A DNA stretch of 63,922 nucleotides, the filler included, from Deltaproteobacteria bacterium (GTDB lineage: Bacteria > JAUYMQ01): assembly GCA_030698575.1 (NCBI GenBank). It is 7 parts of 7 records of this genome, joined end to end, with 100 filler letters (N's around TTAATTAATTAA, not from the genome) between each part and the next. Parts side by side here need not be neighbours in the genome. Positions count along the whole stretch, not along the records: positions 4,379 to 18,279 come from JAUYMQ010000330.1; 6 more parts are not named here. One strand, written 5' to 3'. Below the pieces are notes generated by a model. That model had not been told where the DNA came from, did no database searches, and saw only the letters and a program-made list of their open reading frames with translations. A program made the translations under genes and the position numbers. Positions 4,279 through 54,246 of the stretch are shown here, one piece after another (the stretch's first letter is position 1; every line of letters begins with the position of its first letter).

Positions 4279-4378
4279 NNNNNNNNNNNNNNNNNNNNNN
4301 NNNNNNNNNNNNNNNNNNNNNNTTAATTAATTAANNNNNNNNNNNNNNNNNNNNNNNNNNNNNNNNNNNNNNNNNNNN
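4279..4378. other. Artificial contig spacer
   Basis: N44-TTAATTAATTAA-N44 (stops in all six frames). Confidence 0.99.
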
Positions 4379-4379
4379 C

Positions 4380-5246
4380 CGGGGCAGTTCGCCGCTCTTC
4401 CTGTGGGTCCACTTCCAGGATCCGCACGGGCCCTACGTGCCGCCGGACGATCTCGCGGACCGCTACCTCGAAGCCGAGCGCGCCGCGCCCGACGGACAGG
4501 TTCTGTTGTCCCTTTCGAATAACGTCCGCGGGATAGGGGGGATCCCGACCTATCAGGTGGTCGCGGGCCGCACGCAGGCCGCGGAGTACCGCGCCGCGTA
4601 CGACGGCGAGGTGCGCTACGCGGACGCCGAGATCGGCCTGCTGCTGGAGGGCCTCGCGGAGCGAGGGCTCACCGGGGGTGCCGTCGTGATCTTCGCCGCC
4701 GATCACGGGGAGGGAATGGGCGAGGGGAACTACTGGTTTGCCCACGGCGAGTACCTGAGCGACGCGCTTCTCCACGTGCCGCTGCTCATCGCCGGGCCGG
4801 GCGTCGCGCCGGGCGAGCGCCTAGACCTCGTCTCGCTCGTTGATCTGCTGCCTACGATCACCGGTCTTCTCGGCGTGGCGCCCCCGCCGGAGCTTGCGGG
4901 CCGCAACCTCTTTTCAGGCGGGCTGGACGAAGGGAAGGAGAGCGAGGAGCGGGCGGTTTACTTCATGAGCCTGCCGAAGGAATCGACAAGCCCGCGCTTC
5001 GGCCTGGCCCGCGGCGGGTACAAGTACATCGTGACAGCCGGGGAGGGCGGCCTGAGGGAGGAGCTGTTTGCGCTGGGCCAGGATGGCGAGAACCTGCTGG
5101 TGGAGGAGCAGGAGGAGGCGCGATCCATGGCCGCCGCACTGGCGTCGTTACGGCGGCAGTTTCCGGAGGCAGGCAGCGTGAAGAAGCGCAGCCTGTCGGC
5201 CACAGAGCGCGAGAAGCTTCGTTCGCTTGGCTACGTGTCGGAGTGA
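4380..5246 (+). CDS. Sulfatase-family hydrolase, 5' truncated
   Basis: FLWVHFQDPHGPY (read in frame from 4380), YDGEVRYAD, ADHGE, HG..L...LHVPL and the C-terminal LRSLGY tail. Confidence 0.88.
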   Translation, partial: RGSSPLFLWVHFQDPHGPYVPPDDLADRYLEAERAAPDGQVLLSLSNNVRGIGGIPTYQVVAGRTQAAEYRAAYDGEVRYADAEIGLLLEGLAERGLTGGAVVIFAADHGEGMGEGNYWFAHGEYLSDALLHVPLLIAGPGVAPGERLDLVSLVDLLPTITGLLGVAPPPELAGRNLFSGGLDEGKESEERAVYFMSLPKESTSPRFGLARGGYKYIVTAGEGGLREELFALGQDGENLLVEEQEEARSMAAALASLRRQFPEAGSVKKRSLSATEREKLRSLGYVSE

Positions 5247-5605
5247 GGCGTACGAGGGCGGGATCGGGGGCGCTGCATGTTCTCGATCTTCTTCGTCAGG
5301 TGATCGATAGTTTCCCGCAGCCGCTCAATCTCGGCGCGCTCGGGGATGTTCAGGCGGCGGAGGGCGGCGCGGATGCTCGATTCGATGGCGTCTTCCCATC
5401 CGCCGGGAACGCGCTTGAAGGCGTCGGCGAGCTTGTCCTTCAGTTTCTGGGCATCGGCGGAGGTCAGGTCGCCCTGCTCACGCGCCTTCCGTATGAAATC
5501 ATCGAGCTCGTCCTTCCCCACCGCAGCGGCGCCCACGCTCGCCAGCACGATCCGGCGCAGCAGGTCGCTGAGCCCCTCGCCGCTGTTGTTTTCTCGACCC
5601 GTCAA
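5231..5605 (-). CDS. Phasin-family (PhaF/PhaI-like) granule-associated protein
   Basis: LASVGAAAVGKDELDDFIRK...QGDLT...A and LRRLNIP.RAEIERL..IDHL patterns. Translationally coupled to the PhaR-like gene. Confidence 0.75.
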   Translation of the reverse strand: MTGRENNSGEGLSDLLRRIVLASVGAAAVGKDELDDFIRKAREQGDLTSADAQKLKDKLADAFKRVPGGWEDAIESSIRAALRRLNIPERAEIERLRETIDHLTKKIENMQRPRSRPRTPHSDT

Positions 5606-6234
5606 TTTCGTCCTCCCGCGGTCCTCGAAGCGCGCCGTTTGGCGCGCGGCTGCGCATCCAGCCGATCCACCGCATCGGCGAGCCGATCGACGCTGCTCCT
5701 CAGCCGATCGACATCCTCGCGGGCGGGGACGTCGAACCGGCGCGAGAGCTGCTGCAGGCGCTCATCGATCTGCCCCCCGATCTCCGTCTGCCCTTCCTTC
5801 ACCCAGTCGGCCAGGCGGCGGACCAGGGTCTCTCCCTCGTCGACGTTCAGTTCGCCCCGGCTGACGAGGCGCCGGACCGTCAGCTCCAGATCACCGCCGG
5901 CGTCCGCGATTTTCTCCACCCCGCTCGTGATTGAGCGCCTCACTACATCGAACAGATCGTCGCCCTTCTGGATGAGCTCCACCAGGAGAGGCCTCGGAAG
6001 AGCGTCACGGCCCTTTCGCTCGTTCTCGAGGAGAATCTGCGAGAGGGTGACGCTGGTGAGATCCTCGCTGCTGTCGTTGTCGACGACACGGATGTTCGAG
6101 CCCGACTTCACCAGCTCAGCCAGCTCATCGAGGGTGATGTAGCGGCTCTCCCGGGTATTGTAGAGCTTCCGGTTCGAGTAACGCTTGATGAGCAACGGTG
6201 AGTTGGGATCGTCGGCCTTTTTTCTGCGGCTCAT
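5602..6234 (-). CDS. PHA accumulation regulator (PhaR) DNA-binding domain fused to a phasin-like C-terminus
   Basis: IKRYSNRKLYNTRESRYITLDELAELVK...VVDNDSSEDLTSVTLSQILLE is the PhaR N-domain. The C-terminus has LVSRGEL..EG and DVPAREDVDRL. ATG 6234 overlaps the upstream stop. Confidence 0.85.
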   Translation of the reverse strand: MSRRKKADDPNSPLLIKRYSNRKLYNTRESRYITLDELAELVKSGSNIRVVDNDSSEDLTSVTLSQILLENERKGRDALPRPLLVELIQKGDDLFDVVRRSITSGVEKIADAGGDLELTVRRLVSRGELNVDEGETLVRRLADWVKEGQTEIGGQIDERLQQLSRRFDVPAREDVDRLRSSVDRLADAVDRLDAQPRAKRRASRTAGGRN

Positions 6235-6722
6235 TCCACCTTCACTTTCCGTGCACCACGCGACGGGCGCCCCTTCGGAGGCGATTGCGCGCCGAGGAGT
6301 TCCATCTGCCGGTCTATGATAGCCTTTACCGAGCGAAAGGTCTGTGCAAGAATCGCGGCATCTTTTCCCAGGGCGCCGGCTTCGAGACGCTCGATCTCCT
6401 TGGCGAGCGCTTCCTGCACCGTTGCGAGAGTCTCCCGCTTGATGGCTCGCGAGGGGTCGTCGCCGAGTTTGCGCAGCCGGCTTGCCGCCGAGTCGATCAA
6501 TTCGCGGAGGAGGCGCCATCCGGCCGCTCCGCCGCTGTCCGTCCCCTCACTTCCCTCAGACCGAAGTTCTGCTACGTCGATGGGCACACTCACGGCGACC
6601 CGCAACGCGAGCAGCAGCTCCACGCCCGCGTTGGCCAGGTGGGCCTGCCCCTCGTCCCAGCGTCCCTCGAGGATCTCCGTGATCGCGGCGCCTCGCGCCT
6701 TGGACTTTCGTTTCGGACTCAT
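6231..6722 (-). CDS. Hypothetical helical protein (163 aa) ending in RKVKVE
   Basis: ATGA-coupled at both ends within the operon and predicted helical. Confidence 0.7.
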   Translation of the reverse strand: MSPKRKSKARGAAITEILEGRWDEGQAHLANAGVELLLALRVAVSVPIDVAELRSEGSEGTDSGGAAGWRLLRELIDSAASRLRKLGDDPSRAIKRETLATVQEALAKEIERLEAGALGKDAAILAQTFRSVKAIIDRQMELLGAQSPPKGRPSRGARKVKVE

Positions 6723-7891
6723 TTCTTGCGCCCCTCGAAGATGATGAGGAATCGACCCTGCTCGAGCTTGGCTCGCTTCACCTCAAGCCCGACAAGCGCC
6801 CTCGGAAGCTGGATGCTTCGCTTCACGTTGTTCACCCGCAGGATGAGATCGTCGCCCTTCACCCATAGCTCGACGTTCTCCTTCACGGCGAAGGGGAGGT
6901 GAATCGTCATGCGGTACTCGCCGTTCTTCTTGGAAACCTCGAAGGGCTTCTCCGTGTGATAGATCGAGGCCGGATCCTCGTTTCCGAAAACCTCCAGCGC
7001 CGCGTCTCCGAGCAATTCGACGCCGCCAATTTCGCGGGGAAACAGCGGGACCTGGAGGATCGGCAACGGCGAGAAGCAGGCGTCGGCGGTCTTCATGTGC
7101 TCGGTCTGGATATCCCGCCAGCCCGCCATGTAGGGGTCCTGCAGATCTTTCGGGAGAACCCGGTTGGCGAAAACGCAGTCGACGGAGAAGCCGTAAAGCG
7201 ACAGGTAGGTGAGCGCGCGCTGGCTCTCCTTGATCACCATGCGCTCGGGGTTGAATACCAGCCGGATCGAGGCCTTCCCCGCGTCGCTCAGCAGATCCTT
7301 CATTCCCTTCAGCCGGAGATAGAGCCTCTCGACGTTGTCGTAGACATCTTCCGTCGGCAGCGGAACCTTCATGATGCGCTCCGCCACCGGCTTGAAGGCT
7401 TTCACCAGCTTCCGCTCGATGTGGAAAAATTTCTCCATGTACCAGCCCGCCACCTCGGGGAAGCTCAGCATTCGCATCGTGCTCCCCGTGGGCGCGCAGT
7501 CGATGATGGCAAGGTCGTAGTCGCCCGACTCGGCGAACTCCCGGAGCTTCAGGAGGCTGAACAGCTCCTCCATTCCGGGGAAGAGCGCCATCTCCTCGGC
7601 GATGACATCCTCGAAACCTTGTCGCTTCAGGAATTCGGTGAGGTAGGCGTGGATCTTGTCCCAGTTGACCTGCAGCTCCCGGTTGACGTCCAGCTCCTGC
7701 GCCCAGAGCCGCGGGGCGATTTTGACGAGATCGTGGCCCAGCGGCCGATCCAGCGCGTCGGCAAGGCTGTGCGCCGAATCCGTCGAGATGACGACGGTGC
7801 GGTGGCCCAGTTCGGCGGCGCGCACGGCAGTCATGGCCGAAATGGTCGTCTTCCCGACGCCGCCTTTTCCCGTGTAGAGAATGATTCGCAT
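6719..7891 (-). CDS. ArsA/Get3-family ATPase with C-terminal Hsp20/alpha-crystallin-like domain
   Basis: TGKGGVGKTT, STDSAHSL, FPGMEELFSL, DCAPTG, and a beta-rich C-terminus (HLPFAVKENVELWVKGDDLILRVNNVKRSIQLPRAL). An alternative start lies at 7915. Confidence 0.9.
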   Translation of the reverse strand: MRIILYTGKGGVGKTTISAMTAVRAAELGHRTVVISTDSAHSLADALDRPLGHDLVKIAPRLWAQELDVNRELQVNWDKIHAYLTEFLKRQGFEDVIAEEMALFPGMEELFSLLKLREFAESGDYDLAIIDCAPTGSTMRMLSFPEVAGWYMEKFFHIERKLVKAFKPVAERIMKVPLPTEDVYDNVERLYLRLKGMKDLLSDAGKASIRLVFNPERMVIKESQRALTYLSLYGFSVDCVFANRVLPKDLQDPYMAGWRDIQTEHMKTADACFSPLPILQVPLFPREIGGVELLGDAALEVFGNEDPASIYHTEKPFEVSKKNGEYRMTIHLPFAVKENVELWVKGDDLILRVNNVKRSIQLPRALVGLEVKRAKLEQGRFLIIFEGRKK

Positions 7892-7932
7892 GCGATCCCT
7901 TGACCTCGGATCCACTTCGGCCGGCGGCCCCT

Positions 7933-9099
7933 TCAGGCCGCGAAGAGGTGCTGGTTCAAAAGGCTCAGCCCGTCGAAATCGTGCACGTCGAGGGGAAACA
8001 GCGGCACGCTCAGGAGCCCCACGCCCCTGTCGAGAGAGCCCGCAAGCGTTTCGATGTTGCGCGAATCCCTCTCGGCCATCGCCTGGTGCCTTGCCAAATT
8101 TAGCAGGAGTTTGGACGCCGTGCTGCGGAAACCATCGAACCCCGCGGCTTCGGCCATGCGCGCGGCGGCTTCTTGCCGCCCCTGGTCCGAGAGCAGCGGA
8201 CCCCCCGGACCAGCTGCGCTCCCCGCGAGAGGGCGGTGCACCTTGTTTACGATGACCGCGTCGACGTGCATTTTGTGCTCGACGAGCTTGTTGTAGAAGA
8301 AAACCGTCTCGTCGAGAAGCCGCCGGTTCGGGCTGGTGACCAGGAGAAAGCCGGTGTCCCTGTCCGCTAGGAGCGCCTTCACGCGCTTGGCCCGCTGATT
8401 GAAGCCGTCGTACATTCCCTCGAAGGAAAGAATGAAGTCCGAGATGTCCTTCAGGAACTCCATCCCCGTGACCTTTTCCAGCACCCCGAAGACGCTGCTC
8501 GTGCCCTTGCGGAACACCTTGAAGCCGAGCTGCCCTGCCATCAGATAGGGCTTCACGAGCCAGTGAATGACCTTTCCTTCCAGGAAGGCGGTGATCCGGT
8601 CCGGCGCCTCGAGAAAATCGAGGGCGTGCCGGGTGGGCGGCGTGTCGAGGACGATGAGATCCGCGTCTTCGGTCGAGTGAAGGTCGAAGAGCTTTTCCAT
8701 CGCCATGTACTCGCGGCTGCCCGACAGCGTTTCCGAGAGTTGCTGGTAGATCGGATTTCCGAGAATTGCGTCGCGCATCTCGACGTTGAGCGCGAAGCGC
8801 TCGACGAGATCGTCGAAGGTTCGCTTCGTGTCCACCATCATTGCGCGGAGTTCTCCTTTGAGCGGGACTCCCGCCTTTTCGAACTTCCGCCTTGGCACCG
8901 CCCGCACCTCGTTGCCGAATTCGGAGACTCCGAGCGCGTTCGCCAGCCGGCGGGCGGGATCGATCGTGAGAACGAGAGTGCGCTGTCCCAGCATTGCCGC
9001 CCGGATGGCGATTGCCGCCGCGGTCGTGGTCTTACCGACGCCGCCGGCGCCGCAACAGACGAGTATCTTCTTCTCCTGCAGGAGCGCGTCGAGATTCAT
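7933..9099 (-). CDS. ArsA/Get3-family ATPase (Rv3680/BagB-like)
   Basis: CGAGGVGKTT, TIDPARRLANALG, SGSREYMAMEKL, VLDTPPTRHALDFLEAP. Confidence 0.9.
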   Translation of the reverse strand: MNLDALLQEKKILVCCGAGGVGKTTTAAAIAIRAAMLGQRTLVLTIDPARRLANALGVSEFGNEVRAVPRRKFEKAGVPLKGELRAMMVDTKRTFDDLVERFALNVEMRDAILGNPIYQQLSETLSGSREYMAMEKLFDLHSTEDADLIVLDTPPTRHALDFLEAPDRITAFLEGKVIHWLVKPYLMAGQLGFKVFRKGTSSVFGVLEKVTGMEFLKDISDFILSFEGMYDGFNQRAKRVKALLADRDTGFLLVTSPNRRLLDETVFFYNKLVEHKMHVDAVIVNKVHRPLAGSAAGPGGPLLSDQGRQEAAARMAEAAGFDGFRSTASKLLLNLARHQAMAERDSRNIETLAGSLDRGVGLLSVPLFPLDVHDFDGLSLLNQHLFAA

Positions 9100-10076
9100 G
9101 GCGTGTTGCTCTCGTCGATGATGATCTCGCCGAGCCCGCGGAGATCCTCGATCGAGAGATCGGTTTGATAGACGAAGGGGAGCTGGATGGTGCGCTTCCG
9201 CACGCGCGCCCGAAGGCGGCGGATGTGGTGAACATTCAGGGCCTGGCGCGCTATCGCATCCTTTCCGATCCGGATGAGAGCGGCGGCGTCGAGCCCCTCG
9301 CCGAGGGTTTGCGACAGTCGGTCCAGCGCCTCCGGGTCGGCTTCGAGCTTTTCGATGGCGGCGGCGTCGCTACTGTCGAAGAGCCTGGGGGCGACCCCGT
9401 TGACGATCACCAGTTCGAAGGGGACCTTCAGTTTTTCGTCCGCCGCCTTCGCCATCTCCGCGGCCTCGTTCACGGGCAGCTCCTCGGGGAGGGTCACGAG
9501 TATGAGACGCGTCCGCGCCGGGTCCTCGATAAGATCTCGCACCCACTGACTATGCGTTCGGGGCGGGCCGAACCTTATCGCCTTCACGAAAGCGCCCGGC
9601 GTCTGCAGGAAGCCGAGCCCTTGCCCCGTGGCGGGCGCATCGACGATGATCAGGTCGTATTTCGGGCGGTTGGACCCGGCCTCCCGCTGGCTTTCGAGAT
9701 GCCAGACCTTCCCGAGCGTGATGAGATCGCGGAAACCGGGCGCCACCTCGACGAGCTGCTTGAACAACGGATTGTGCGAGATGAGGCGGACCAGGCGGCG
9801 CGAGGGGAGCTGGGTCTCGAGGTATTCCTCCAGCGCCCGGTAGGGGTGGAGGTTGATGGCCCAGATGTTCTCGTCGACGGGTACTTCGTTGTGGCCGGCG
9901 GGCTGGGCGCCGAAGATCCGAGAGAAGTGCTCGCGCGGCCCGATCTCGACCAGAAGGACCCGCTTCCCGCGCTTCGCCGCCGCCAGCGCCAGTGCGGCGC
10001 TCACGGTCGTCTTTCCGACCCCCCCCTTGCCCGTGACGAGCAGGAGCCGCATCGCGAGCGGGGAGGCAGCTTTCAT
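9096..10076 (-). CDS. ArsA/Get3-family ATPase (Rv3679/BagA-like)
   Basis: TGKGGVGKTT, APGFRDLITLGK, VDAPATG, VTLPEELPVNE. Confidence 0.88.
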   Translation of the reverse strand: MKAASPLAMRLLLVTGKGGVGKTTVSAALALAAAKRGKRVLLVEIGPREHFSRIFGAQPAGHNEVPVDENIWAINLHPYRALEEYLETQLPSRRLVRLISHNPLFKQLVEVAPGFRDLITLGKVWHLESQREAGSNRPKYDLIIVDAPATGQGLGFLQTPGAFVKAIRFGPPRTHSQWVRDLIEDPARTRLILVTLPEELPVNEAAEMAKAADEKLKVPFELVIVNGVAPRLFDSSDAAAIEKLEADPEALDRLSQTLGEGLDAAALIRIGKDAIARQALNVHHIRRLRARVRKRTIQLPFVYQTDLSIEDLRGLGEIIIDESNTP

Positions 10077-10154
10077 TCTGGCCCCTTGCAGCTCCGCCCC
10101 CTTCCACCCGATCCGTGACAAGCGCAAGGCCGCCCGGCAGACACCCCCAAAAGC

Positions 10155-10183
10155 GAATTAACACGGTGCGTCAGGACTGTCAA
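10155..10183 (-). promoter_or_regulatory. Putative sigma70 promoter of the ArsA/PhaR/phasin operon
   Basis: Minus strand TTGACA-N17-TAATTC with a TG just upstream of the -10. Confidence 0.6.
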
Positions 10184-10287
10184 GCAGGGCAGCCGGGGCA
10201 CCACGCGCCAGAGCCTTAAGAATCATCCCCGAATGGCCGATTCTTTATTCAGGCGCCCGGCACCCGTGCGCCACCGTCGGAGCCTGC

Positions 10288-11784
10288 ATGATCGTCAGCT
10301 GCGAGTACTGCGCCACCCGCTTCAAGTTCGACGAGCAGCGCATCAAGCCCAAAGGGATCAAGGTCCACTGCTCGCGGTGCCGGCGCACCTTTGTCCTGAA
10401 GCATCCGGACACGCCCGTCGCCCCTGCCGAAACCGAGCAGGTAGCGCCCGATCTGGCCACGCAGGCCGAACTCCCTTCGCCCGTCGTCGACACCGCCGGC
10501 GCGGACTCCGCGGCGTTGTCCGACCCGGAGGTCTTCGAGGACGATCCGCTTGCCGACGTGCCGGGTTTCGACCCCGACGACCTGCCGTCTTCCGTGAACG
10601 ACGCAGCGGCGGAGGAGGAGAAGGCCCTCGAGGCTCTCGCGCGGGATGATCAGCTCGATGCCGGGGTGGCCCAGGCACTCGATCGATTCGGGGCGCCGCC
10701 CTTCGATGCAGGCGAAGGCGAGGAGGAAGCCGCCGGGGAGGACGTGGCGGAAAGTGCCGATCTGTCCGCTGATGCGGATCTCTTTGATGCCGCCGGCTTG
10801 ACAGATGACGAGGCGGGCGAGGAGACAAACGACGATCAAGCGGATCTTCCCTCTCTCGAGGGGGAGGCCGCGAAGGGGGACGACAGCTTCGGCACGCCCG
10901 TGGAATTCGACTGGGATCAGGTCTCGTTCTCGAAGGGGAAGGAAGCCGCGAGCGCCGGCGCCGAGGAGAGCGAAACAGAGCCGGCGGTGGACGGCGAAGA
11001 TGACACATCGTTTTTCACCGAGCCGACAGTCCATGAGAAGCAGGCGCCGCCGAGCCTCGCCTCGGTGGAGGCAGATTCGGCGAAGGCCTTCGAGACCGAA
11101 TCACTGGAGCTCGACCTGAGGAATGTTTCGAGCCGGCCAGGCCTTGTGAAACCGGCCCCCGCGCCGGTCGCCCCCGCCGCGGCCAAGGCTCGTCCGGCGC
11201 CCGCGGTGGATAGTTCCCGCCGTGATGCCGCGGCGACTCCCAAAAAAGCCAAAGCCGTCGTCGTGCCCCCGCTCCGGATGAGGGCGCGGCCGGAGCGCGC
11301 GGCCCTCGCGCTTCCGGGCATCAGCGGCCTGATTCTTTCGATCGGCCTCGGGCTCGTTGCCGCGGGCGCCGGGGCGATACTGGCCTACACGCCCTCCCGC
11401 GGTGGTGCCGAGCTTGTTCGACCGGCGGGGGGCGCCGCCGGAAGCACCGCTCTTTTGGTCGAGGATACCCGCAGCATCACCGTCGATCGCCTTCAGGGGC
11501 CGTCGCTCTACCTGGTCACCGGCAAGGCGCGCTGGAAGGGACCGTCGCAGGCTTTGGCCTACCTCGAGGGGGTCATCACCGACGACGCCGGGAAGATTCT
11601 CGAGCGCCGCCCGGCCCGCCTCGGCGAGTTGCCGAACTGGAAGACGATCGAAGCGGTCGACCCGGATCTCTTCGCCCCCCACACGCCGCTCCCCGCCGAC
11701 GGAGAGACTCCCTTCAGCCTGCTCTTCGCTCCCGATCCGACATGGCGAGGCGAGGTGCACTTCGAGCTGCGCACCGGCGAATGA
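10288..11784 (+). CDS. MJ0042-family zinc-ribbon membrane protein (acidic linker, one TM helix, DUF3426-like C-terminus)
   Basis: MIVSCEYCATRFKFDEQRIKPKGIKVHCSRCRRTF N-terminus, a long D/E/A-rich linker and a TM segment GLILSIGLGLVAAGAGAILAY. Confidence 0.8.
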   Translation: MIVSCEYCATRFKFDEQRIKPKGIKVHCSRCRRTFVLKHPDTPVAPAETEQVAPDLATQAELPSPVVDTAGADSAALSDPEVFEDDPLADVPGFDPDDLPSSVNDAAAEEEKALEALARDDQLDAGVAQALDRFGAPPFDAGEGEEEAAGEDVAESADLSADADLFDAAGLTDDEAGEETNDDQADLPSLEGEAAKGDDSFGTPVEFDWDQVSFSKGKEAASAGAEESETEPAVDGEDDTSFFTEPTVHEKQAPPSLASVEADSAKAFETESLELDLRNVSSRPGLVKPAPAPVAPAAAKARPAPAVDSSRRDAAATPKKAKAVVVPPLRMRARPERAALALPGISGLILSIGLGLVAAGAGAILAYTPSRGGAELVRPAGGAAGSTALLVEDTRSITVDRLQGPSLYLVTGKARWKGPSQALAYLEGVITDDAGKILERRPARLGELPNWKTIEAVDPDLFAPHTPLPADGETPFSLLFAPDPTWRGEVHFELRTGE

Positions 11785-11864: not shown

Positions 11865-12077
11865 TCAGCTCGTCGAACCGGGCGTGGAATTCCCGGTCTC
11901 GTCCTCGCCGGTCTTCTTGGGTGTCACGTCGATCTCGTCCGGCTCCTTTGTCGCCTTCTTGAAGGCCTTGATGCTCTTCCCGAGAGCGCCGCCCAGCTCG
12001 GGAAGTCGCCCGACGCCAAAGATGATCACGACCATCAGGAGGATAAGCACCAACTCCCAGATCCCCAGTCCGAACAT
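11865..12077 (-). CDS. tatA: Twin-arginine translocase TatA/E subunit
   Basis: [42 protein letters not shown]. Confidence 0.93.
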
Positions 12078-12233
12078 GGGCAGTCCCCATAACAGGGATC
12101 CCCTGGAACTCGCGCCATCGTGGCACGCGGGCTTCAGAAACCCCTTGTAATAGTTGAACAAACGCTAGCCCAGGGGCAGGGGGAAGTCAACCACGATGAT
12201 GTGGAGGGGCGCGGCGCCCGCCGGGCCGGTGTC

Positions 12234-12959
12234 TCAGACGAGACTCTGGAGGACATGCCGGTTGATGGCTCGCTGGTCCTTGGTTTCGATGCTGGTGAAC
12301 TTGATTCCCACGCCCGGCGGATAGGACATCTCGGTGTCTGGCCGGTATTCGTTGCGCCAGGTCACAATGCCCTCGGACTCGATGAGGTGCTTCCTGCGCG
12401 GGAGACTGAAGGCGAGCCTCAGCTCGGTGTTCTCCGGGGGAGGCGAGATCGTGCGGAGAAAGAGGCCTCCCGTGGAGATGTTGTAGGAGTAGCCCGAGAG
12501 CTCGGTCTCCTCGATCCGGTAGCGAACGAGGATGTTTTCCTCGATCCGCGGATTCATCCGGAGCTCCCGCTTGTCGGGATAGAGGATCCGGTTGATGCGG
12601 AAGAGAACTTGGTCCAGCGGGGTCTTCTTGCTCATGTAGCCCGCCGCACCCAGTTGCTTCAGCTCCTCCACGTGCTTTTCACGGTAGGCGCTCGAGATGG
12701 CCAGCACCGGGATACCCGCCGTGACCTTGGCCTGCTTCAGTTCACGGAGAACGCCGAAACCGTCCAGCTCGGGCATGCGGATGTCGAGGAGCACGAGGGA
12801 GACGTCCTGCAGCTCGTACTTCAGCTTCCGGACGCACTCAAGACCGTCCGAGGCGACGTGCACCGCGTAGCCGGCATTGTTCAGCATCTCCCGGAGCATG
12901 CGCTGCCAGAGCTTCGAGTCGTCGGCGACCAGAATGCTGATGTTCTGCGAGTTGGCCAT
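12234..12959 (-). CDS. Response regulator receiver fused to PilZ domain
   Basis: ILVADD, LLDIRMPELDG receiver, then RELRMNPR and NISTGGLFL PilZ motifs and PPGVGIKF. Confidence 0.85.
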   Translation of the reverse strand: MANSQNISILVADDSKLWQRMLREMLNNAGYAVHVASDGLECVRKLKYELQDVSLVLLDIRMPELDGFGVLRELKQAKVTAGIPVLAISSAYREKHVEELKQLGAAGYMSKKTPLDQVLFRINRILYPDKRELRMNPRIEENILVRYRIEETELSGYSYNISTGGLFLRTISPPPENTELRLAFSLPRRKHLIESEGIVTWRNEYRPDTEMSYPPGVGIKFTSIETKDQRAINRHVLQSLV

Positions 12960-13060
12960 GATGGCGCCCCTCCCCACCGCCGGGGGTTCTGCGGATTACT
13001 GCACTTGTCTGTGCTTATCGACGCTTTGCCACGAGATCCTGAGTTGGAAGGGGGGGCGGG

Positions 13061-16231: not shown

Positions 16232-16690
16232 TTATCGGCTGCGCGTTCGATAGAGAGTTACCGTGCCTGAAAGGCCAATGGTTGCTAGGAACGGTCTGCG
16301 CGTGTTCTTTACGGTTCGATACATCTTTGGTAGTGCGCGCGTGAATGCCTCAGCCATCTTCGCGCCCGTCAAATTTCCGGATGTCAGGATGAATGCACCA
16401 ACTTCGTGCTGGACAATGGCCCGCCACTCAATTTCATTGTGACGGATCCTGCGGTCTTTGGACAGAACGATCCACCCTTGAAGGCCCGCCTCGGTGAGCC
16501 ATATCTCGTCGGGAGTTCCCTGATCAAAACGCTCGTTGTGCGTAATGACAGCCGCGCCACTTTCTCTCAGAGCCTCGGCAATAGTATGCCCGCCCAGGGA
16601 GGCGTCCAGGAAGAAAATGAGTTGTTCAGGCGGCCTTGAGATCGAGCTCGCAGCGGATCGCTTCTTCGATCTCCGCCGCTTCCCGGCCAT
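16232..16690 (-). CDS. VapC45-like PIN-domain toxin
   Basis: FFLDASLG, TPDEIWL..AG..GWIVLSKDRRIR. Overlaps the end of the DUF433 antitoxin gene. Confidence 0.8.
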   Translation of the reverse strand: MAGKRRRSKKRSAASSISRPPEQLIFFLDASLGGHTIAEALRESGAAVITHNERFDQGTPDEIWLTEAGLQGWIVLSKDRRIRHNEIEWRAIVQHEVGAFILTSGNLTGAKMAEAFTRALPKMYRTVKNTRRPFLATIGLSGTVTLYRTRSR

Positions 16691-17348
16691 AGTCCTCCAT
16701 AAGATCCCGGATAGAGTCACCGGCCTTGTAACGTTCGGCGATCACCGAGGTAGGAACGTTTGTGCCTGTAATGACGGGCCTGCCAAAGGCAACTCGAGCA
16801 TCTATCACGACGTTTCTCGGAGCATCCTGGATCGCCTGGCGAGTGAATGGAAAGAGCTTCACCGGTAGACCTTCAGGGTCGCGCTCGATCCTCCTGAGAT
16901 AAGTTTCAAGCGCTTCACGAATGGTGATCTGACCGCCTCTCGTGATGGCGACGAGATCGCCCATGTGGCTAATGAACAAATCCTTTCCATCCGTTTCCAT
17001 CGCTTTCTCTATCAGCGGGTGAACAGTATTGAAGTGCTTTCGGAGGTAGTCGACGGCACGCCGCACATCCGGCAGTGCCACGTGGTGCTGGCGTCGTATA
17101 GCGCCCAGCACGTGCGCCTCGCAGAGGTTGTAAAAGGAAAGTCTGGGGGGTGTGGGTTCCGGAATGCGAATCACCGGCAGCGCCGTTCTCGTGCCCTGCC
17201 GGGTAGCGTAAGGCCGGCCCATGACCCAAGCCCGAAGTGTGGCGGCGGGGAGGCCGAGATAGTGGGCGGCCTCCTTCACGCCGTATACGCCAAGCGAACG
17301 TGGATCAGAGGCGAGTCTTGAATGGGAGCTATTCTTGGGCATTTGCAT
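16626..17348 (-). CDS. VapB45-like antitoxin (HTH plus DUF433)
   Basis: YGVKEAAHYLGLPAATLRAW, LSFYNLCEAHVL, VIDARVAFGRPVITGTNVPT...GDSI...DYG. Confidence 0.85.
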   Translation of the reverse strand: MQMPKNSSHSRLASDPRSLGVYGVKEAAHYLGLPAATLRAWVMGRPYATRQGTRTALPVIRIPEPTPPRLSFYNLCEAHVLGAIRRQHHVALPDVRRAVDYLRKHFNTVHPLIEKAMETDGKDLFISHMGDLVAITRGGQITIREALETYLRRIERDPEGLPVKLFPFTRQAIQDAPRNVVIDARVAFGRPVITGTNVPTSVIAERYKAGDSIRDLMEDYGREAAEIEEAIRCELDLKAA

Positions 17349-17444
17349 CACGTCCCCCGGATAGGCTCGCAAGGACCTGAAGGGCCGTCGCGATCGGCTG
17401 GGGCGGTATTCTGCTCGGGAGCAGTTGTTGTGGCAACAAGAATT

Positions 17445-18278
17445 CTAGCCGGATTCGGACGGCCAGGGATAGGCATCTTGCTTACAGGCCACGTAATTTT
17501 CATCGAGCCTAGGCTCGAGAAGCACGATCGCGGCTATCCGGCGGCCCATGTCGGTGACCTCGCGGGCTTCCTCCAGCCTGAGCGGCCTTCCCAGTAAAGC
17601 GCGCTCTCTATACGAAAGCCATTTTTTGATGACCTGGTAGCCACCGATAACGTAATCCCATACGCGTGAGGGAACATTCTTCCAGTACGCCTCGTTGTTC
17701 AGATAAACGTCGCAAGTGCGCTCCCCGAGGTGCTTCAACGCCTGCTTTGTGGTCAGACCGAGCGCCTTGGCGCCCGCGCTGATGGCTTCCATCTCGTCCG
17801 GCGCATAGTCCCGCGCCAGGATCTTTCCCTTCCCCGGCATTGTGACGCCCCCCTTACCCGAGTGCCCCCAACCGGCGGTCAGAGCCAATCGCTCGGAATC
17901 TGAGCTGATCTGCCCCCCGCCCACACGAAAGATCACGGCAATGCCTTTCAGTTCGGGCCGCAGCTTGCCCGAGGTCACGCCCGGGACAGGGGTTTCCGTA
18001 TCCAGCCGCATTGCGACCTGGTTTCCGAGCTCTGCGGAAGCCAAGAGCGCTTTCTTCGCGCTTGGAAGGGGAATGCGAGGCCAGTCCTGACGAATTCCAT
18101 CCGTGTTATCAGCCAGGTATAGGGGTGAATAACCGATTGCGAGGGCGTGCAACCATATGATCTGAGGGTTGATGGCGCCAGCGCTCTTCTGGTTTTTGTC
18201 AATCGTGGATAGATAGCCGATTGCCCTGGGAGAATAGTTCGGCGAGGTGCTACCGTCATCGCGCGAAGTTTCTTGATA
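17445..18278 (-). CDS. Type ISP restriction-modification enzyme, C-terminal specificity region (5' truncated)
   Basis: HALAIGYSPLY..N...RQDWPRIPLP and YWKNVP..VWDYVIGGYQVIKKWLSYRE. The frame is open to the contig end. Confidence 0.85.
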   Translation of the reverse strand, partial: YQETSRDDGSTSPNYSPRAIGYLSTIDKNQKSAGAINPQIIWLHALAIGYSPLYLADNTDGIRQDWPRIPLPSAKKALLASAELGNQVAMRLDTETPVPGVTSGKLRPELKGIAVIFRVGGGQISSDSERLALTAGWGHSGKGGVTMPGKGKILARDYAPDEMEAISAGAKALGLTTKQALKHLGERTCDVYLNNEAYWKNVPSRVWDYVIGGYQVIKKWLSYRERALLGRPLRLEEAREVTDMGRRIAAIVLLEPRLDENYVACKQDAYPWPSESG

Positions 18279-49039: not shown

Positions 49040-52000
49040 GGGACCGCGTCGTCGACGCTGGTGCGGAACGCCCCGGGGCACATCACGAACCGGACCGATT
49101 TTCGGGGGGTGCAGACGACCTGGGCCAATCACGACGTGGACGGAAGCCCGGGCACGGTGACCGAGGCGGTGGGCGAGCCCGAGCAGCGGACGACGACGTT
49201 CACGTACCACCCGGAGCTCCACACGGCGCTCTCGATCGTGCGCCCCAGCGCTCTGCCCGGCGGCACGCAGAAGGTCGCGATCTTCGACTACCAGAAGCCC
49301 GCATCGGGCCCGCCGCCTGACCCGCCGCTGAACCCGCCCGCGGACTTGGACCCAGCGACGTTCAACATTCCTGGGACGAACAACACAAACTTCGACCGCG
49401 TGGTGCACCGGGTGATCGAGAGTGGCTGGACACGGGATGCGGCGGGCACCCCGCTACGCGTGGCTTACGTCTCGCATTTTAGCTACGACGGCTTTGGGCG
49501 TGTGACCAGCATCGATGGGCCACGGGACAATACCGGGCCGGCGGGACCCGATGTGACGACGTTTGCCTACTACGCCGACAACGCGGCGCAGGGCAACAAG
49601 CGCGGGCAGTTGCAGACGGTCACGAACGCGGCTTCGCAGGTAACGGCCTTCAACGACTACGACGCCATGGGAAACGCGCTGTCGGTGACGGACCCCAACG
49701 GCCTCACGACGACCTTCACGTATGACGCGGGCAATCGGGTAAGGACCATCACGCAGGTGGGGGCCGGCGTCGATGGCGGTGGGCAGCCCATCGACCTCGT
49801 GACAACGTACGTCTACGAGGCGAACGGGAACCTCGACTACATCGCGCTCCCGCGGGGCAACTTCATCAACTACCAGTTTGACGGGGCCGATCGGCTCAGC
49901 TCCATCACGCGGACGGCGACCGAGCCCACGAGCCCCTCCGACACGCCGGCCGGGGAGACAATCCGGTACAGCTACGACAGCGAGGGAAACCGGACGCGCG
50001 AGGAGGTGGCGCCGGGGGTCTCCGCGCAAGAAGTCCGCTTCACCGACTTCGAGTACGACGCCCTGAACCGGCTCGAAAAGGTCTACAACCCGGTCTTCAC
50101 GAGCGACCCCGTGACCGACGCCGTCTTCCGGCGATCTACGTATGACGCCAACGGCAACCGCAAGGCCTTGGACCTGGAACAAGTCCAGGGGATGACCTCC
50201 ACGACGCTCCGCCACACGGCCTTCGCCTTTGATCCCCTGAACCGGCTGAAAGACGTAACCCAGGACGACGGCTCGCCTTCGGGGGTCCTGACCGCCTACG
50301 CCTACGACGTGCAGGACAACCTTCGAACCCTCACCGACGGCAACAACCACGACACGGACTACGGGACGGATGATTTCGGCCGCCAGGTCGAAGCGGTCTC
50401 GCCCGACACGGGGACGGCCCGGTTCGAGTACGACGAGGCCGGAAATCTGGTGGAGAAGGACCAGAACGGCCTCGTCACCGAGTACACCTACGACGCCCTG
50501 AACCGCCTGGCCCTCGTGCACTTTCCTTCTGATTCCTCGGAGGACCTTGCCTACACCTACGACACCCACGCCGACGCGCCGCCGAAGGAGAACGGCGTCG
50601 GGCGCCTCGTGCGGATCGAGGATGCCTCGGGGAAGACCTACTTCTCGTACGACAAGCGGGGAAACGTGGCCCTGGAGGAACGGCAGCAGGGCGGCGTGAC
50701 GCTCACAACGAGCTACGCCTGGGACCCGAACGGGAACCTGCAGAGCCTGACCTACCCCTCGGGGCGGAAGCTCACCTACAGCTACGCCCTCGCGAACGAC
50801 CAGCCCCAGACCGTGGCCATGAACCACCAGGGGCAGAACCGGACCCTGGCCTTCGGGATTGCCTTCGAGGCCTTCGGCCCCTTGGCCTCGCTCCAGTACG
50901 GAAACGGCCTGGTGGAGACCCGGACCTACGATGTGGCAGGCCAGCTCGATGGCCTGAGTGTGGCCCCCAATACAGGCCCCGCCGTGCTCTCGCTGGACTA
51001 CACCTTCGACGAGACGGGCAACATCTCCGGCATCGTCGACACGCAGGGTTCCGAGAAGAACAAGAGCTACATCTACGATCGTCTGGACCGCCTCGACACG
51101 GCGACCGTCGGAGATCTCGGGGATTTCGACTACGACTACGACCCCGTGGGGAACCGAACCCGGGAGGACCATGACGGGGCGGTCACGACCTATACGATCG
51201 AGGCCACGAACAACCAGATCGACACCCTCTCCGGGGCCACCACGGCGACCTTCGGCTATGACACCCATGGCAACACGACCACGGACGGGACGCTGACTTT
51301 CGCGTACCACCCGACGCATCAGTTGAAGCAGGTCCAGGAGCCGGGCATGGCGGTGCTGGGAACCTACCAGTACGACGGCCAGTCGCGGCGGACGGCCAAG
51401 ACCGTGCAGGGGCTGACGCGGCTCTTCGCCTACGACACGGGCGCGCAGATGCTGGGCGAGTATGACGCTGCGGGGAACGTGCTGAAGGAGTACGCCTACC
51501 TGGGGACGCAGCGGCTGGTGATGGTGGACCACGACCGGGACGATGAGGGCATCCGGGACGAGGTGGACAACTGCTCGGTCGTCCAGAACCCGGACCAGGC
51601 GGACGGGGACTCGGATCTTCTGGGGGATCTGTGCGATGCGGCCCCCGGAAATCCCGACCGGGACGGGGACGGGCTTCTGGATGGGGAAGAAGATGCCGAT
51701 AAGGATGGCCAGGTGAGCGCGGGAGAGACCGACCCCGACAACCCGGACACGGATGGGGACACGTTCAGTGATGGCGTTGAGGTGGCGGCGGGGACGGACC
51801 CGCTGGACCCGAATTCCTACCCGGGCGCGCCGTCCGCGATTCCAGCCCTCTCCGTCATGGGCGTGGTGATCTTCCTGGTTCTCTTTGCCGCGGGGCGGTT
51901 CTGGGCCCTCCGGCGGCGGTGGTCGAAGGTGGGGCGGGGCATGGATCTCATGGTGCTGGCGCTGGGCCTCACCCTCATGGCCCCGGAGGGGGTGACCCCG

Positions 52001-52945
52001 CAGGGCGGAGGTACGCCGGAGCGGGTGTACTACATTCACACGGACCACCTCGGAACGGCGCTGAAGCTGACCGATGCCAATCAGCAGGTGGCTTGGGATG
52101 CCCGAGCCGAGGCCTTCGGAAAGACGACGGTCACGGCCACGAACACGGTGTTCAACCTCCGCTTCCCGGGCCAGTACTATGATGCGGAGACGGGGCTGAC
52201 CCACAATGGCTTCCGGACGTATTCGTCCCAGCTTGGCGCTTACCTGCAGGCCGACCCGATTGGCGACGCTCTTACAGCAGCGACCGGGGTGACGGGTCTT
52301 CACTACGGGTACGCCGATGCCTCACCCACCGGGGTGATCGACCCCCTGGGGCTCGATGGGATTGCGCAGGGGGCATATGACTATTGGGAGGCCGTCGGGG
52401 TTGCGGGGGCAAGCCAGGGCGGGGTGCGCGGCACGGCGCAGATGGCCGCCGCCGCGTTCGCGCAGGCATCGATCGATTTCTTCCTGGCGCGGTGGATTGA
52501 ATCGGAGGCTGGGCTTGCCGGCTATGCCTACGGGCAACAGTGCTACGGGGAAGCGCTGAAGCACGGCGGCTACGCGGCGGGAGGCATTGCCCTTTCTTCG
52601 GGTGCCATCGGGTATGTCGTCCCCAAGATTCCCGGACTGTTTTCGAGAGCCGCAAGGGTGGGATCCCGCGTCGATCCTACACGGCTTAGCCATATTTTCC
52701 GCGATGCTCCAGGGCATGTGAACCCGTCGACGGTTGCGTCTCGCGAGCGGTTCCTTCGGCTATTCGAAGACGTAGCGTCGAATCCTCTAAACCGGCGTCC
52801 AGACTTCCCGCTACCGAAGGAGGCCGTGGAGGCGGGTGTTGAATCGTTCACGAAAACGTACCGAAGCGGGAAACAAATATGGGTGCTAACCCGGGATGGA
52901 AAGATCATCAACGCTGGCGTCAACCCAGGGGGTGCGATCCGATGA
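49040..52945 (+). CDS. RHS/YD-repeat polymorphic toxin (5' truncated) with inserted TSP3 repeats and membrane hairpin
   Basis: Many YD repeats, core motifs YYIHTDHLGT, NLRFPGQYYDAETGL, ADPIG and IDPLGL, then a C-terminal extension of about 196 aa. Confidence 0.93.
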   Translation, partial: GTASSTLVRNAPGHITNRTDFRGVQTTWANHDVDGSPGTVTEAVGEPEQRTTTFTYHPELHTALSIVRPSALPGGTQKVAIFDYQKPASGPPPDPPLNPPADLDPATFNIPGTNNTNFDRVVHRVIESGWTRDAAGTPLRVAYVSHFSYDGFGRVTSIDGPRDNTGPAGPDVTTFAYYADNAAQGNKRGQLQTVTNAASQVTAFNDYDAMGNALSVTDPNGLTTTFTYDAGNRVRTITQVGAGVDGGGQPIDLVTTYVYEANGNLDYIALPRGNFINYQFDGADRLSSITRTATEPTSPSDTPAGETIRYSYDSEGNRTREEVAPGVSAQEVRFTDFEYDALNRLEKVYNPVFTSDPVTDAVFRRSTYDANGNRKALDLEQVQGMTSTTLRHTAFAFDPLNRLKDVTQDDGSPSGVLTAYAYDVQDNLRTLTDGNNHDTDYGTDDFGRQVEAVSPDTGTARFEYDEAGNLVEKDQNGLVTEYTYDALNRLALVHFPSDSSEDLAYTYDTHADAPPKENGVGRLVRIEDASGKTYFSYDKRGNVALEERQQGGVTLTTSYAWDPNGNLQSLTYPSGRKLTYSYALANDQPQTVAMNHQGQNRTLAFGIAFEAFGPLASLQYGNGLVETRTYDVAGQLDGLSVAPNTGPAVLSLDYTFDETGNISGIVDTQGSEKNKSYIYDRLDRLDTATVGDLGDFDYDYDPVGNRTREDHDGAVTTYTIEATNNQIDTLSGATTATFGYDTHGNTTTDGTLTFAYHPTHQLKQVQEPGMAVLGTYQYDGQSRRTAKTVQGLTRLFAYDTGAQMLGEYDAAGNVLKEYAYLGTQRLVMVDHDRDDEGIRDEVDNCSVVQNPDQADGDSDLLGDLCDAAPGNPDRDGDGLLDGEEDADKDGQVSAGETDPDNPDTDGDTFSDGVEVAAGTDPLDPNSYPGAPSAIPALSVMGVVIFLVLFAAGRFWALRRRWSKVGRGMDLMVLALGLTLMAPEGVTPQGGGTPERVYYIHTDHLGTALKLTDANQQVAWDARAEAFGKTTVTATNTVFNLRFPGQYYDAETGLTHNGFRTYSSQLGAYLQADPIGDALTAATGVTGLHYGYADASPTGVIDPLGLDGIAQGAYDYWEAVGVAGASQGGVRGTAQMAAAAFAQASIDFFLARWIESEAGLAGYAYGQQCYGEALKHGGYAAGGIALSSGAIGYVVPKIPGLFSRAARVGSRVDPTRLSHIFRDAPGHVNPSTVASRERFLRLFEDVASNPLNRRPDFPLPKEAVEAGVESFTKTYRSGKQIWVLTRDGKIINAGVNPGGAIR

Positions 52946-53460
52946 GCGCATTGGCGAACGCCCTGGCACTCGATACAGCGCAAGACCTCCCTGCTGCAGC
53001 TCGGGAATACGAGCGGGCGGTCAGGGACGTAGGGGCGACATTGGAAACGTATTTGAATCTGGCGGTTCTCTATTTCGTACTCGTGGATCCTGGGGAGGCC
53101 AGCACGCGAGGATTGTCCGCTGACTTCGTGAATGCGGCATGGCGACGAGCAACTGAGCTGCTCGAAGAAGCTTCTGACCGTTTTGGTTCGAACTCCGAGA
53201 TCGAGTTCTGGAAGAGATACTTCCGCTTCGTTGTTGTCGGGGATGCGTTTCTTCCAGAGGAGTGCGAAGAGCTTGCAAAAAGTGGAGGCTCGCTCGTCCC
53301 TTACTTCTTCCTTTCTTCCGCTTGTGATGATAACCGATATTGTGAGCAGACGGAGGTACTTCGCGAACAAGTCCGTGCCCGCGAGACGGCTAGACAGCGA
53401 TACGTTTATGATATGCTGCAAAAGGCGCGAGGTCGATCTCGCCAGAGGTCGAAGTCATGA
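52942..53460 (+). CDS. Putative cognate immunity protein (TPR-like helical)
   Basis: ATGA overlap with the RHS stop, lower GC, and a helical AAAREYE...YLNLAVLYF segment. Confidence 0.75.
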   Translation: MSALANALALDTAQDLPAAAREYERAVRDVGATLETYLNLAVLYFVLVDPGEASTRGLSADFVNAAWRRATELLEEASDRFGSNSEIEFWKRYFRFVVVGDAFLPEECEELAKSGGSLVPYFFLSSACDDNRYCEQTEVLREQVRARETARQRYVYDMLQKARGRSRQRSKS

Positions 53461-53570: not shown

Positions 53571-54246
53571 TGTCCAGCTCAAAAACTCTATCTGCCCACT
53601 TTTGGAACAGGATCTTGAGACCCGGACATGCGGAGTGGCTCGGTTCAGTGCCTGGCCTTCGGTATGGGAATCGCGTGCATAGGGTGATCGGGTGGGCGGA
53701 CGTATCCGACCAAGCGATACGAGGCAATCGGCTGGTAGGACCTCAGGCCGCGCGCCCGTACCGGTGATGAAGGCCGCCCACCTGGGGGATGGCGATGACG
53801 CGTCCCCGGGACGGCGGCTCTATGTTCCTGGGAACGGGGGCGTTCCTCTGGAGCGAGATGTGAGGGCGCGCCCGATCGTAATAATGGAGGTAGCTCTTGA
53901 GAACCCTGCGAAGGTGATTCTCGCCGAACACGATGACGTGGTCCAGACACTCCCGCCGGATGGAACCGATCACCCTTTCCACGAATGGATTTTGCCAGGG
54001 CGACTTCCGGCTCGTGATGATCTCCCGAATGCCCATGTTCTGGAGCCGTCGGCGGAACCAATCCCCGTAGATACCGTCCCGATCCCGAACGAGGAACCTG
54101 GGGATCGGCTCATCGTCTGGGAACGCCTCGACCATCTGCTGGGCTGTCCACTCGGCCGTGGGATGCTCGGTCACGTTGAAGTGCACGATGCGTCGGCGGT
54201 CGTGGGAAAGGACGAGGAAGCAATACAGGACGCGAAACGTGGCCGT
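53571..54246 (-). mobile_element. IS481/IS3-like insertion sequence, partial
   Basis: Integrase-core transposase plus a probable terminus TGTCCAGCTCAAAAACTCTATCTGC starting with TGT at 53571. The other end is cut by the contig break. Confidence 0.7.
53743..54246 (-). CDS. Integrase-core (rve) DDE transposase, 5' truncated
   Basis: HFNVTEHPTAEWTAQQ, RDRDGIYG, SPWQNPFVERVIGSIRRECLDH, RPHISL, GGLHHRY. Confidence 0.9.
   Translation of the reverse strand, partial: TATFRVLYCFLVLSHDRRRIVHFNVTEHPTAEWTAQQMVEAFPDDEPIPRFLVRDRDGIYGDWFRRRLQNMGIREIITSRKSPWQNPFVERVIGSIRRECLDHVIVFGENHLRRVLKSYLHYYDRARPHISLQRNAPVPRNIEPPSRGRVIAIPQVGGLHHRYGRAA

Follow-up and report, generated by a model that had tools for sequence, protein, structure and literature searches.

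Two Get3-like ATPase modules share an operon with PhaR- and phasin-like genes in a deltaproteobacterial genome

Introduction

Why should three ATPases of the Get3/ArsA superfamily be encoded in one operon together with a PhaR-type DNA-binding protein and a phasin? The question is raised by a locus in the metagenome-assembled genome (MAG) of a Deltaproteobacteria bacterium (GCA_030698575.1, here G000), which lies within a stretch of 63,922 nucleotides that was built from several contigs of the MAG and is referred to here as the window. An earlier, sequence-only reading of the window took the operon for a system that targets proteins to storage granules. Our analysis suggests, with a probability that we put at roughly 0.45 when the proposed mechanism is included, that the operon joins two separately conserved Get3-like modules with a PhaR/phasin-style circuit that would be independent of polyhydroxyalkanoate (PHA).

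Results

The operon is located on a 13.9-kb contig (G000:C610), which follows a run of Ns after window position 4326 (4327-4375) and extends from ~4376 to ~18276; a further contig (C612) occupies 21081-48938. Six co-oriented open reading frames (ORFs) are present on the minus strand, encoding a BagA-like and a BagB-like ATPase, an ATPase with a C-terminal α-crystallin domain (A3), a helical protein of 163 amino acids (aa) (H163), a fusion of a PhaR_N domain with a phasin-like coiled coil, and a phasin-family protein. The genes overlap by 4 nucleotides (nt) at four junctions (9096-9099, 6719-6722, 6231-6234 and 5602-5605), a gap of 41 nt separates the BagB-like gene from A3, and a codon-usage test detects coding signal in all six, so that the co-oriented, mostly overlapping six-gene operon of the sequence-only reading is borne out by ORFs, families and junctions. 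The host MAG comprises 4.13 Mb in 653 contigs and is 91.6% complete, and its phylum is represented in the collection by three genomes only, G000 and its relatives G001 and G002. Locus counts given below are based on tblastn, hidden Markov model and Pfam matches, because a simple codon-score gene caller chose shadow ORFs in some high-GC loci.

The first two genes encode a putative BagA/BagB-type pair. The BagA-like ORF (9096..10127, minus strand; NF053622 153 bits, PF02374 110 bits) opens at TTG 10127, and the likely start is the ATG at 10076, which is conserved in the upstream alignment. The BagB-like protein (7933..9099, minus strand; NF053621 337 bits) carries the P-loop GAGGVGKT and has 6bs3_B as its closest solved chain (E 4.5e-66). 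NF053622 and NF053621 are the top families for the respective proteins, yet both scores remain below the equivalog cut-offs (153 vs 400 and 337 vs 521 bits), and TIGR00345, with a cut-off of 135 bits, is likewise reached by neither the BagA-like (113 bits) nor the BagB-like protein (98 bits). As for BagA/BagB of Mycobacterium tuberculosis (Rv3679/Rv3680, PDB 6BS3-6BS5), the two genes are adjacent and overlapping and encode single-domain Get3-like proteins. A second BagA/BagB-like pair is encoded on the minus strand elsewhere in the same genome (G000:C25, locus L098:764-2991), preceded by a 164-aa cysteine-rich protein and a FAD oxidoreductase.

At the distal end of the operon, the fusion gene encodes a 210-aa protein (5602..6234, minus strand) in which a PhaR_N DNA-binding domain is followed by a phasin-like coiled coil. 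Since homologues measure 203-210 aa, we place the real start within the longest ORF (5602-6519) at ATG 6234. The PHB_acc_N domain is well supported (PF07879, 89.3 bits vs a cut-off of 25), the C-terminal half matches PF05597 at 28.0 bits, just under the cut-off of 28.8, and the full PhaR model TIGR01848 scores 78.7 bits, below its cut-off of 109.45. Homologues of the fusion are abundant (1461 at E<=1e-10), and among the 120 listed, precomputed Pfam assignments place PF07879 in 120 and additionally PF05597 in 59. The last gene encodes an amphipathic phasin-family protein of 124 aa (5231..5605, minus strand; PF05597 39.0 bits vs 28.8) that, as judged from hydropathy and hydrophobic moment, has no transmembrane segment. 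Canonical PhaR, according to two studies, leaves the DNA for polyhydroxybutyrate (PHB) granules and thereby de-represses phasin genes (PMC3079617, PMC3570403). The N-terminal PHB_acc_N domain and the phasin gene close by recall the PhaR-PhaP circuit (e.g. that of Ralstonia eutropha), as does, in Myxococcota, a shared divergent control region; here, however, the C-terminal half is a coiled coil of the PF05597 type, no PhaC was found nearby or in the genome, and where PhaC does exist, it is accompanied by a distinct PhaR_N paralogue.

The association of BagAB with PhaR_N and phasin-like genes extends well beyond the host. The best 80 BagB-like loci were surveyed with one genome per species (a denominator that includes two unpublished genomes, both unlinked), and a BagA-like gene is present upstream in 71 and A3 downstream in 12 of them. 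A PhaR_N gene with phasin-like genes nearby occurs in seven of the 80. Three of these are from Desulfobacterota, where two loci (L035, L069) have the order PhaR-phasin, phasin, BagA, BagB on one strand, in the third (L041) BagA is immediately preceded by a PhaR-phasin fusion and a separate phasin gene was not detected, and all three have a divergent sigma-54 activator upstream. A further three are from Myxococcota and show PhaR_N on the plus strand, phasin on the minus strand, then BagA and BagB, and the remaining one, from Acidobacteriota, has its PhaR-phasin gene 6.5 kb away. Thus, the pair sits with PhaR_N/phasin-like genes here, in Myxococcota and in Desulfobacterota, in contrast to the actinobacterial BagAB loci, which are without them. 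Coordinate mapping of genome-wide Phasin matches produced 25 more phasin-linked candidates, which were rejected, by frame and length, as coincidences on other contigs.

The linkage is densest in Myxococcota, for which an even sample of 121 genomes contains BagB-like genes in 110 and PhaR_N in 104. In at least 34 of the 88 genomes with both genes among the matches listed, PhaR_N is located 1.2-5.0 kb upstream of BagB (median 2.5 kb), on the same strand in 34 of 34; this number is a lower bound because 22 BagB matches lie outside those listed and many assemblies are fragmented. By tblastn, the 34 linked loci contain BagA in 34, a tetratricopeptide-repeat (TPR) gene in 31 and UPF0047 in 14, and in 23 of them a phasin-like gene is divergent from bagA and therefore has a common control region with it. 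Together, these loci indicate an ancient and widespread association of BagAB with PhaR_N/phasin-like genes that spans three phyla or more.

This association does not track PHA synthase. No PhaC_N match was found in G000 (a 91.6%-complete MAG, for which absence is not proof), G001 or G002, all of which have only class III-like α/β-hydrolase matches of 49-68 bits. One such hydrolase in the host (G000:C171, L009:758-2454; PhaC-like, 68 bits) is encoded directly after an acyl-CoA thioesterase of the YbgC/FadM type, an arrangement that is kept in G001 and G002. True PhaC genes, of class III and class I type, are present in the three linked Desulfobacterota genomes. Of the 121 Myxococcota genomes sampled, 45 carry a PhaC-like gene, including 12 from the linked group of 34 (odds ratio 0.89, p 0.84). 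Moreover, the PhaR_N genes of Myxococcota fall into two classes, located either ~1-4 kb from PhaC-like genes or upstream of BagAB, and PhaC-bearing genomes often hold both (e.g. G237:C553, G316:C9, G283:C1, G268:C1). Because the linkage is independent of PhaC and a separate PhaR_N stands beside PhaC, the BagAB-linked PhaR_N represents a separate, PHA-independent class. PHA inclusions, which the sequence-only reading had listed among the targets of the ATPases, are thus not supported either by the host and its phylum-mates or by Myxococcota.

Neutral lipids offer a possible but weak connection. A fragment of a wax ester synthase/diacylglycerol acyltransferase (WS/DGAT) gene, corresponding to the C-terminal 220 positions, is present at a contig end of the host MAG (G000:C356:5603-6253, L011; TIGR02946 178 bits, PF06974 93 bits). 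It is the only storage-lipid synthase found in this MAG; four complete copies are present in G001, a member of the same family. A genome-wide search for PhaC versus WS/DGAT thus returned none of the former and, of the latter, a truncated gene. Among Myxococcota, 26 of 121 genomes carry WS/DGAT, 14 of them in the linked group of 34 and 12 among the 87 others, such that the linkage weakly tracks WS/DGAT (odds ratio 4.4; p 0.002 without correction for kinship or assembly quality). We note that, in one Acidobacteriota locus (L076:4729-7688), a fatty acyl-CoA reductase (NAD_binding_4) and an epimerase are encoded between the PhaR-phasin gene and BagA, which would represent chemistry of the wax-ester type beside the system.

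The third ATPase, A3 (6719..7891, minus strand), is of a different kind. Its longest ORF spans 6719-7915, with ATG 7891 as the likely start, and it encodes a Get3/TRC40-type ATPase with an intact P-loop (PF02374, 292 bits) that exceeds the cut-off of TIGR00345 (TRC40/GET3/ArsA; 264.5 vs 135 bits) and carries a C-terminal ArsA_HSP20 domain (PF17886, 65.8 vs 22.5 bits). The AlphaFold2 model (predicted local distance difference test, pLDDT, 85.9) matches archaeal Get3 across the ATPase domain, and the only full-length matches are the Get3d structures 8EGK, 3IGF and 8ELF. A3 therefore has in common with Get3d (Arabidopsis AtGet3d, 8ELF; Nostoc All4481, 3IGF/8EGK) the Get3 fold and the C-terminal α-crystallin domain, while its score of 151 bits against the NosAFP equivalog NF050088 is below the cut-off of 325. 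The P-loop of A3 is the canonical GKGGVGKT, whereas NostocGet3 is described as being without a nucleotide-binding site in PMC6593721, which also presents bacterial Get3 homologues with an α-crystallin domain as uncharacterised and proposes them to be general chaperones. For Get3d, PMC10248533 reports solved structures, capture of a tail-anchored protein in vitro, and an α-crystallin domain without typical oligomerisation features; it describes the partners of Get3d as still to be found, whereas here a small partner gene is coupled to the ATPase. Family and fold matches together confirm that the Get3-like ATPases of the operon belong to two distinct systems, one a pair of BagAB type and the other of α-crystallin type, as had been read from the sequence.

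The gene coupled to A3 encodes H163 (6231..6722, minus strand), which is predicted to form four helices followed by a disordered basic tail ending in RARKVKVE (pLDDT 70). Its 24 close homologues are each at least 59% identical, and the C-terminal RARKV[KTP]VE is present in 23 of 23 aligned homologues. A profile search of 1.84 billion representatives returned only 12 matches, of which the distant ones likewise end in [RK][KR]Vx[IV][EDG]. The same tail recurs in Vicinamibacteria, where all nine BagA-BagB-A3 loci with DNA downstream of A3 have an ORF of 68-80 aa that overlaps the A3 stop. We note that the run of BagA, BagB, A3 and small protein is followed in five of the Vicinamibacteria loci (L048, L053, L056, L076, L079) by an outer-membrane β-barrel-like protein and in three of these (L048, L053, L056) by a Ras/MglA-like GTPase as well. 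An independent sample of 151 genomes from different families provided 17 Get3+α-crystallin loci, 15 of them with downstream sequence, and a small ORF with the strict tail overlaps or adjoins the ATPase gene in 10 of the 15, with a variant tail in another two. The background is low: of 1149 called genes, 7 encode the strict tail, each of them in the post-ATPase position. We define the partner family accordingly as small ORFs that overlap or directly follow the ATPase gene and end in basic-[VI]x[VI]-[EDKG], to which H163 belongs; its members, in short and long forms, have an N-terminal helix motif in common.

Searches with H163 and its relatives suggest that this is a family not described before, encoded directly after Get3+α-crystallin ATPase genes in many phyla. 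No family match was obtained for any of them in the Pfam copy searched; PF27253 is precomputed on nine of the 24 H163 homologues, its name was not retrieved, and an existing entry for a domain of unknown function (DUF) may already cover the family. An ESM Atlas search with H163 gave matches that are all below 0.9, Foldseek of the model against the PDB yielded nothing beyond generic helical bundles, all with E above 0.001, and no longer fused forms were found, which is weak evidence. DUF5304 was considered and dropped, as H163 alone matched it (E 0.0072; ESM Atlas 0.75) and other family members did not; DUF5304 was also not found in five genomes searched, where controls gave no match either. 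Charge covariation between tail endings and α-crystallin residues revealed nothing clear, and a complex prediction for two copies of A3 with H163 (score 0.02, mark 0.32) speaks neither for nor against an interaction. The homologues track Get3+α-crystallin genes in many phyla, which identifies H163 from its genomic distribution as a dedicated partner of the α-crystallin-type ATPase; a role of the 163-aa protein as granule component or coat is not supported.

The complete gene order is also found outside the host. A metagenome scan with the H163-homologue alignment matched ten contigs, two of which (L099, L100) have the full order of divergent zinc-ribbon gene, BagA, BagB, A3, H163, PhaR-phasin and phasin. 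Six fragments (L101-L106) are in register with it, such that all eight informative contigs agree; the other two matches (30-32 bits) were set aside as spurious. Part of the order is present in G002, of the same family, where phasin, PhaR-phasin, H163 and A3 are found up to the contig end (70-76% identity), G001 has A3 at a contig end, and L012 and L013 carry BagA-BagB-A3. In addition, short contigs from one run of an estuary metatranscriptome match window positions 5588-5758, 7319-7595 and 8356-9048 at 92-99% identity, on the PhaR-phasin, A3 and BagB genes, which is a weak hint that close relatives are present in that RNA library; contigs of this kind show neither transcription nor operon structure.

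Upstream of the operon, a promoter-like block of the extended -10 type, TTGACA-N14-TGT-TAATTC (10155..10183, minus strand), can be read from the sequence, with TTGACA at 10183-10178, a 17-nt spacer and TAATTC at 10160-10155. The block TTGACA-N14-TGT-TAAyTC is kept, between diverging flanks, in three of four aligned upstream regions (window, L012 and L099); the upstream region of L013 is not alignable to it. The promoter that had been noticed earlier is therefore present and conserved in relatives, although a sigma-70 consensus scan of 4800-10600 reported zero sites, missing this block because its -10 hexamer is poor. Within the divergent intergenic region, an inverted repeat AAGAATC-N14-GATTCTT (10218..10245, no strand assigned) has a right arm, ATTCTTAAG, that is invariant in the window, L012 and L099, and may serve as an operator.

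Beyond this region, a divergent gene (10288..11784, plus strand; PF13717, TIGR02098) encodes a zinc-ribbon protein of the MJ0042 type that has a single transmembrane segment at residues 348-366, followed by a TatA/E gene (11865..12161, minus strand; TIGR01411 61 bits) whose true start is probably near 12077. The zinc-ribbon gene is in the same divergent position in L099, L100 and 28 of the 34 linked Myxococcota loci, and TatA keeps its relative place in L099, L100, L013, L032, L037 and 13 of the 34. As these two genes are placed alike in the window, L099 and Myxococcota, the whole neighbourhood looks inherited. In the host clade, the PhaR/phasin pair looks, from this comparison of gene orders, to have moved behind an inserted A3-H163 module.

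None of the 62 other window ORFs scanned was recognised as an ars gene or a PHA synthase gene, in keeping with what had been reported for the surroundings of the operon. Just beyond tatA, the window encodes a fusion of a response-regulator receiver with a PilZ domain (12234-12977) of the TIGR02266 type ('gmx_TIGR02266'), a family that is expanded in myxobacteria. Further along, in DNA of lower GC (0.59), are a DUF433/helix-turn-helix protein and part of the C-terminal domain of a Type ISP restriction enzyme (16626-18152). Another region (49061-53460) encodes an RHS-repeat protein of 1294 aa that contains a TSP3 repeat and, after it, a 172-aa ORF with no family assignment; an integrase-core fragment (53743-54186) comes next. 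The RHS layout resembles, in its gene arrangement, that of a polymorphic toxin with an immunity gene.

Discussion

The operon thus brings together two modules that are conserved separately. Module 1 would consist of a putative BagA/BagB-type heterodimer with, as companions, the PhaR_N protein with its phasin-like amphipathic domain and the small phasin-like protein. In module 2, the Get3+α-crystallin ATPase is translationally coupled to its small helical partner, H163; A3 is the most likely docking site for the basic-[VI]x[VI]-acidic tail of this partner. In small heat-shock proteins, the C-terminal IxI/V motif binds the β4/β8 groove of α-crystallin domains, and, by analogy, the tail of H163 may occupy the α-crystallin groove of A3. 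As in those proteins, a [VI]x[VI] motif is located at the end of a disordered tail and is encoded beside an α-crystallin-domain protein; the difference is that here the α-crystallin domain and the motif are on two different proteins, and that basic residues come before the motif. The best-ranked literature on Get3 and small heat-shock proteins contained no mention of "IXI motif". Alternatively, the tail may be an activating peptide for the ATPase, as in systems of the ParA/MinD type.

For the operon as a whole, we propose that the PhaR-like protein acts as a repressor and that, upon appearance of a hydrophobic surface, it would be titrated off, as canonical PhaR is by PHB. At the expense of ATP, the ATPases may then hold phasin-like amphipathic proteins, or clients of a similar kind, and deliver them to this surface, which would be PHA-independent; candidates are neutral-lipid bodies, of wax ester or triacylglycerol (TAG), or the membrane. 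What is retained of the storage-granule reading is the widely kept linkage to PhaR_N/phasin genes, together with the WS/DGAT fragment in the genome, whereas the failure to find PhaC and the assignment of H163 as a partner of the ATPase rather than a granule coat speak against it. Literature searches returned nothing that joins "phasin" with "Get3", and nothing among the best-ranked papers on ArsA, phasin, PhaR, polyhydroxyalkanoate and Get3 joins an ArsA/Get3 ATPase with PHA proteins.

Several observations weigh against the proposal. No PhaR_N or phasin gene is nearby in 73 of the 80 best BagB loci, mostly from Actinomycetota, and no PhaR, phasin or A3 is near the second BagAB pair of the host genome (L098). 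The tail-bearing neighbour is absent at three of the 15 Get3+α-crystallin loci, the phasin call for the fusion is weak (28.0 vs 28.8 bits), and neither a PhaC-like gene nor WS/DGAT is present in 11 of the 34 linked Myxococcota genomes. In addition, the conserved TatA and zinc-ribbon membrane-protein neighbours would also fit a membrane-directed role.

Indeed, the ATPases could serve the biogenesis of membrane proteins, targeting small or bitopic proteins such as TatA, the single-pass zinc-ribbon protein or others, with the PhaR-like protein acting solely as a transcription factor and the phasin-like protein as a holdase. Such a role would account for the positions that TatA and the zinc-ribbon/transmembrane protein hold from the candidate phylum of the host to Myxococcota, and is consistent with the binding of transmembrane helices by Get3 homologues, including the in vitro capture of a tail-anchored protein by Get3d reported in PMC10248533. 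However, TatA was detected in just 13 of the 34 Myxococcota loci, where UPF0047 and TPR genes are conserved too, neither TatA nor the zinc-ribbon protein is tail-anchored, and the Desulfobacterota loci are flanked differently, by the sigma-54 activator; we consider this role unlikely.

A general role in stress proteostasis, in which BagAB and A3 are ATP-regulated holdases and the phasin-like proteins are co-induced chaperones with no particular compartment, seems to us equally doubtful. It agrees with the general-chaperone function proposed for bacterial Get3 homologues with α-crystallin domains, as put forward in PMC6593721, and with the protection that bagAB confers on M. tuberculosis against glycerol and nitric-oxide stress, as described in PMC10597346, and the 11 linked genomes without either type of synthase gene are readily accommodated. 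Yet it leaves unexplained both the persistent pairing of PhaR_N/phasin with BagAB across phyla and the modest enrichment of WS/DGAT (14/34 vs 12/87, p 0.002, kinship uncorrected).

A PHA-granule system in the narrow meaning of the term, with ATPases that would load granules of polyhydroxyalkanoate with phasin and PhaR, is disfavoured and appears improbable. It is suggested by the domain names and by the presence of PhaC in the three linked Desulfobacterota genomes (with a separate phasin in L035 and L069, and the fusion only in L041), but no PhaC_N match was found in G000 (91.6% complete), G001 or G002, 22 of the 34 linked Myxococcota genomes have no PhaC-like gene (odds ratio 0.89), and PhaC-bearing genomes often have a second PhaR_N gene beside PhaC. 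Finally, that the ATPases belong to an arsenite pump and serve ArsB or Acr3 can be dismissed with near certainty: they belong to the same P-loop superfamily as the arsenite-translocating ATPase ArsA, and their Pfam domain is named ArsA_ATPase, but they are single-domain proteins with no tandem duplication (TIGR04291 54-84 bits, far below the cut-off of 650), the search for ars genes in the window ORFs scanned was negative, Acr3 was not found in the genome, and the sole ArsB-superfamily match is a 36.6-bit partial one on another contig, in agreement with the earlier view that the operon ATPases are not an arsenic pump.

Returning to the two-module proposal, its implications reach beyond this operon. 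BagAB and the Get3d-type ATPases, bacterial as well as chloroplast, have solved structures without known clients or partners, for which the locus offers first candidates, namely the PhaR_N/phasin-like pair for BagAB and the small tail-bearing protein coupled to Get3+α-crystallin genes. The survey further shows that many genes labelled "PhaR" or "phasin" in genomes without PHA synthase are part of another circuit, one that is linked to BagAB. It is tempting, though decidedly tentative, to generalize that Get3+α-crystallin ATPases are two-component machines with a small helical partner whose tail plugs the α-crystallin domain or fires the ATPase, and that the clients or regulators of BagAB are PhaR_N/phasin-like proteins that sense and coat a PHA-independent hydrophobic surface, e.g. 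that of neutral-lipid bodies. If so, the partner that the Get3d branch has so far been missing would be a protein of the H163 type.

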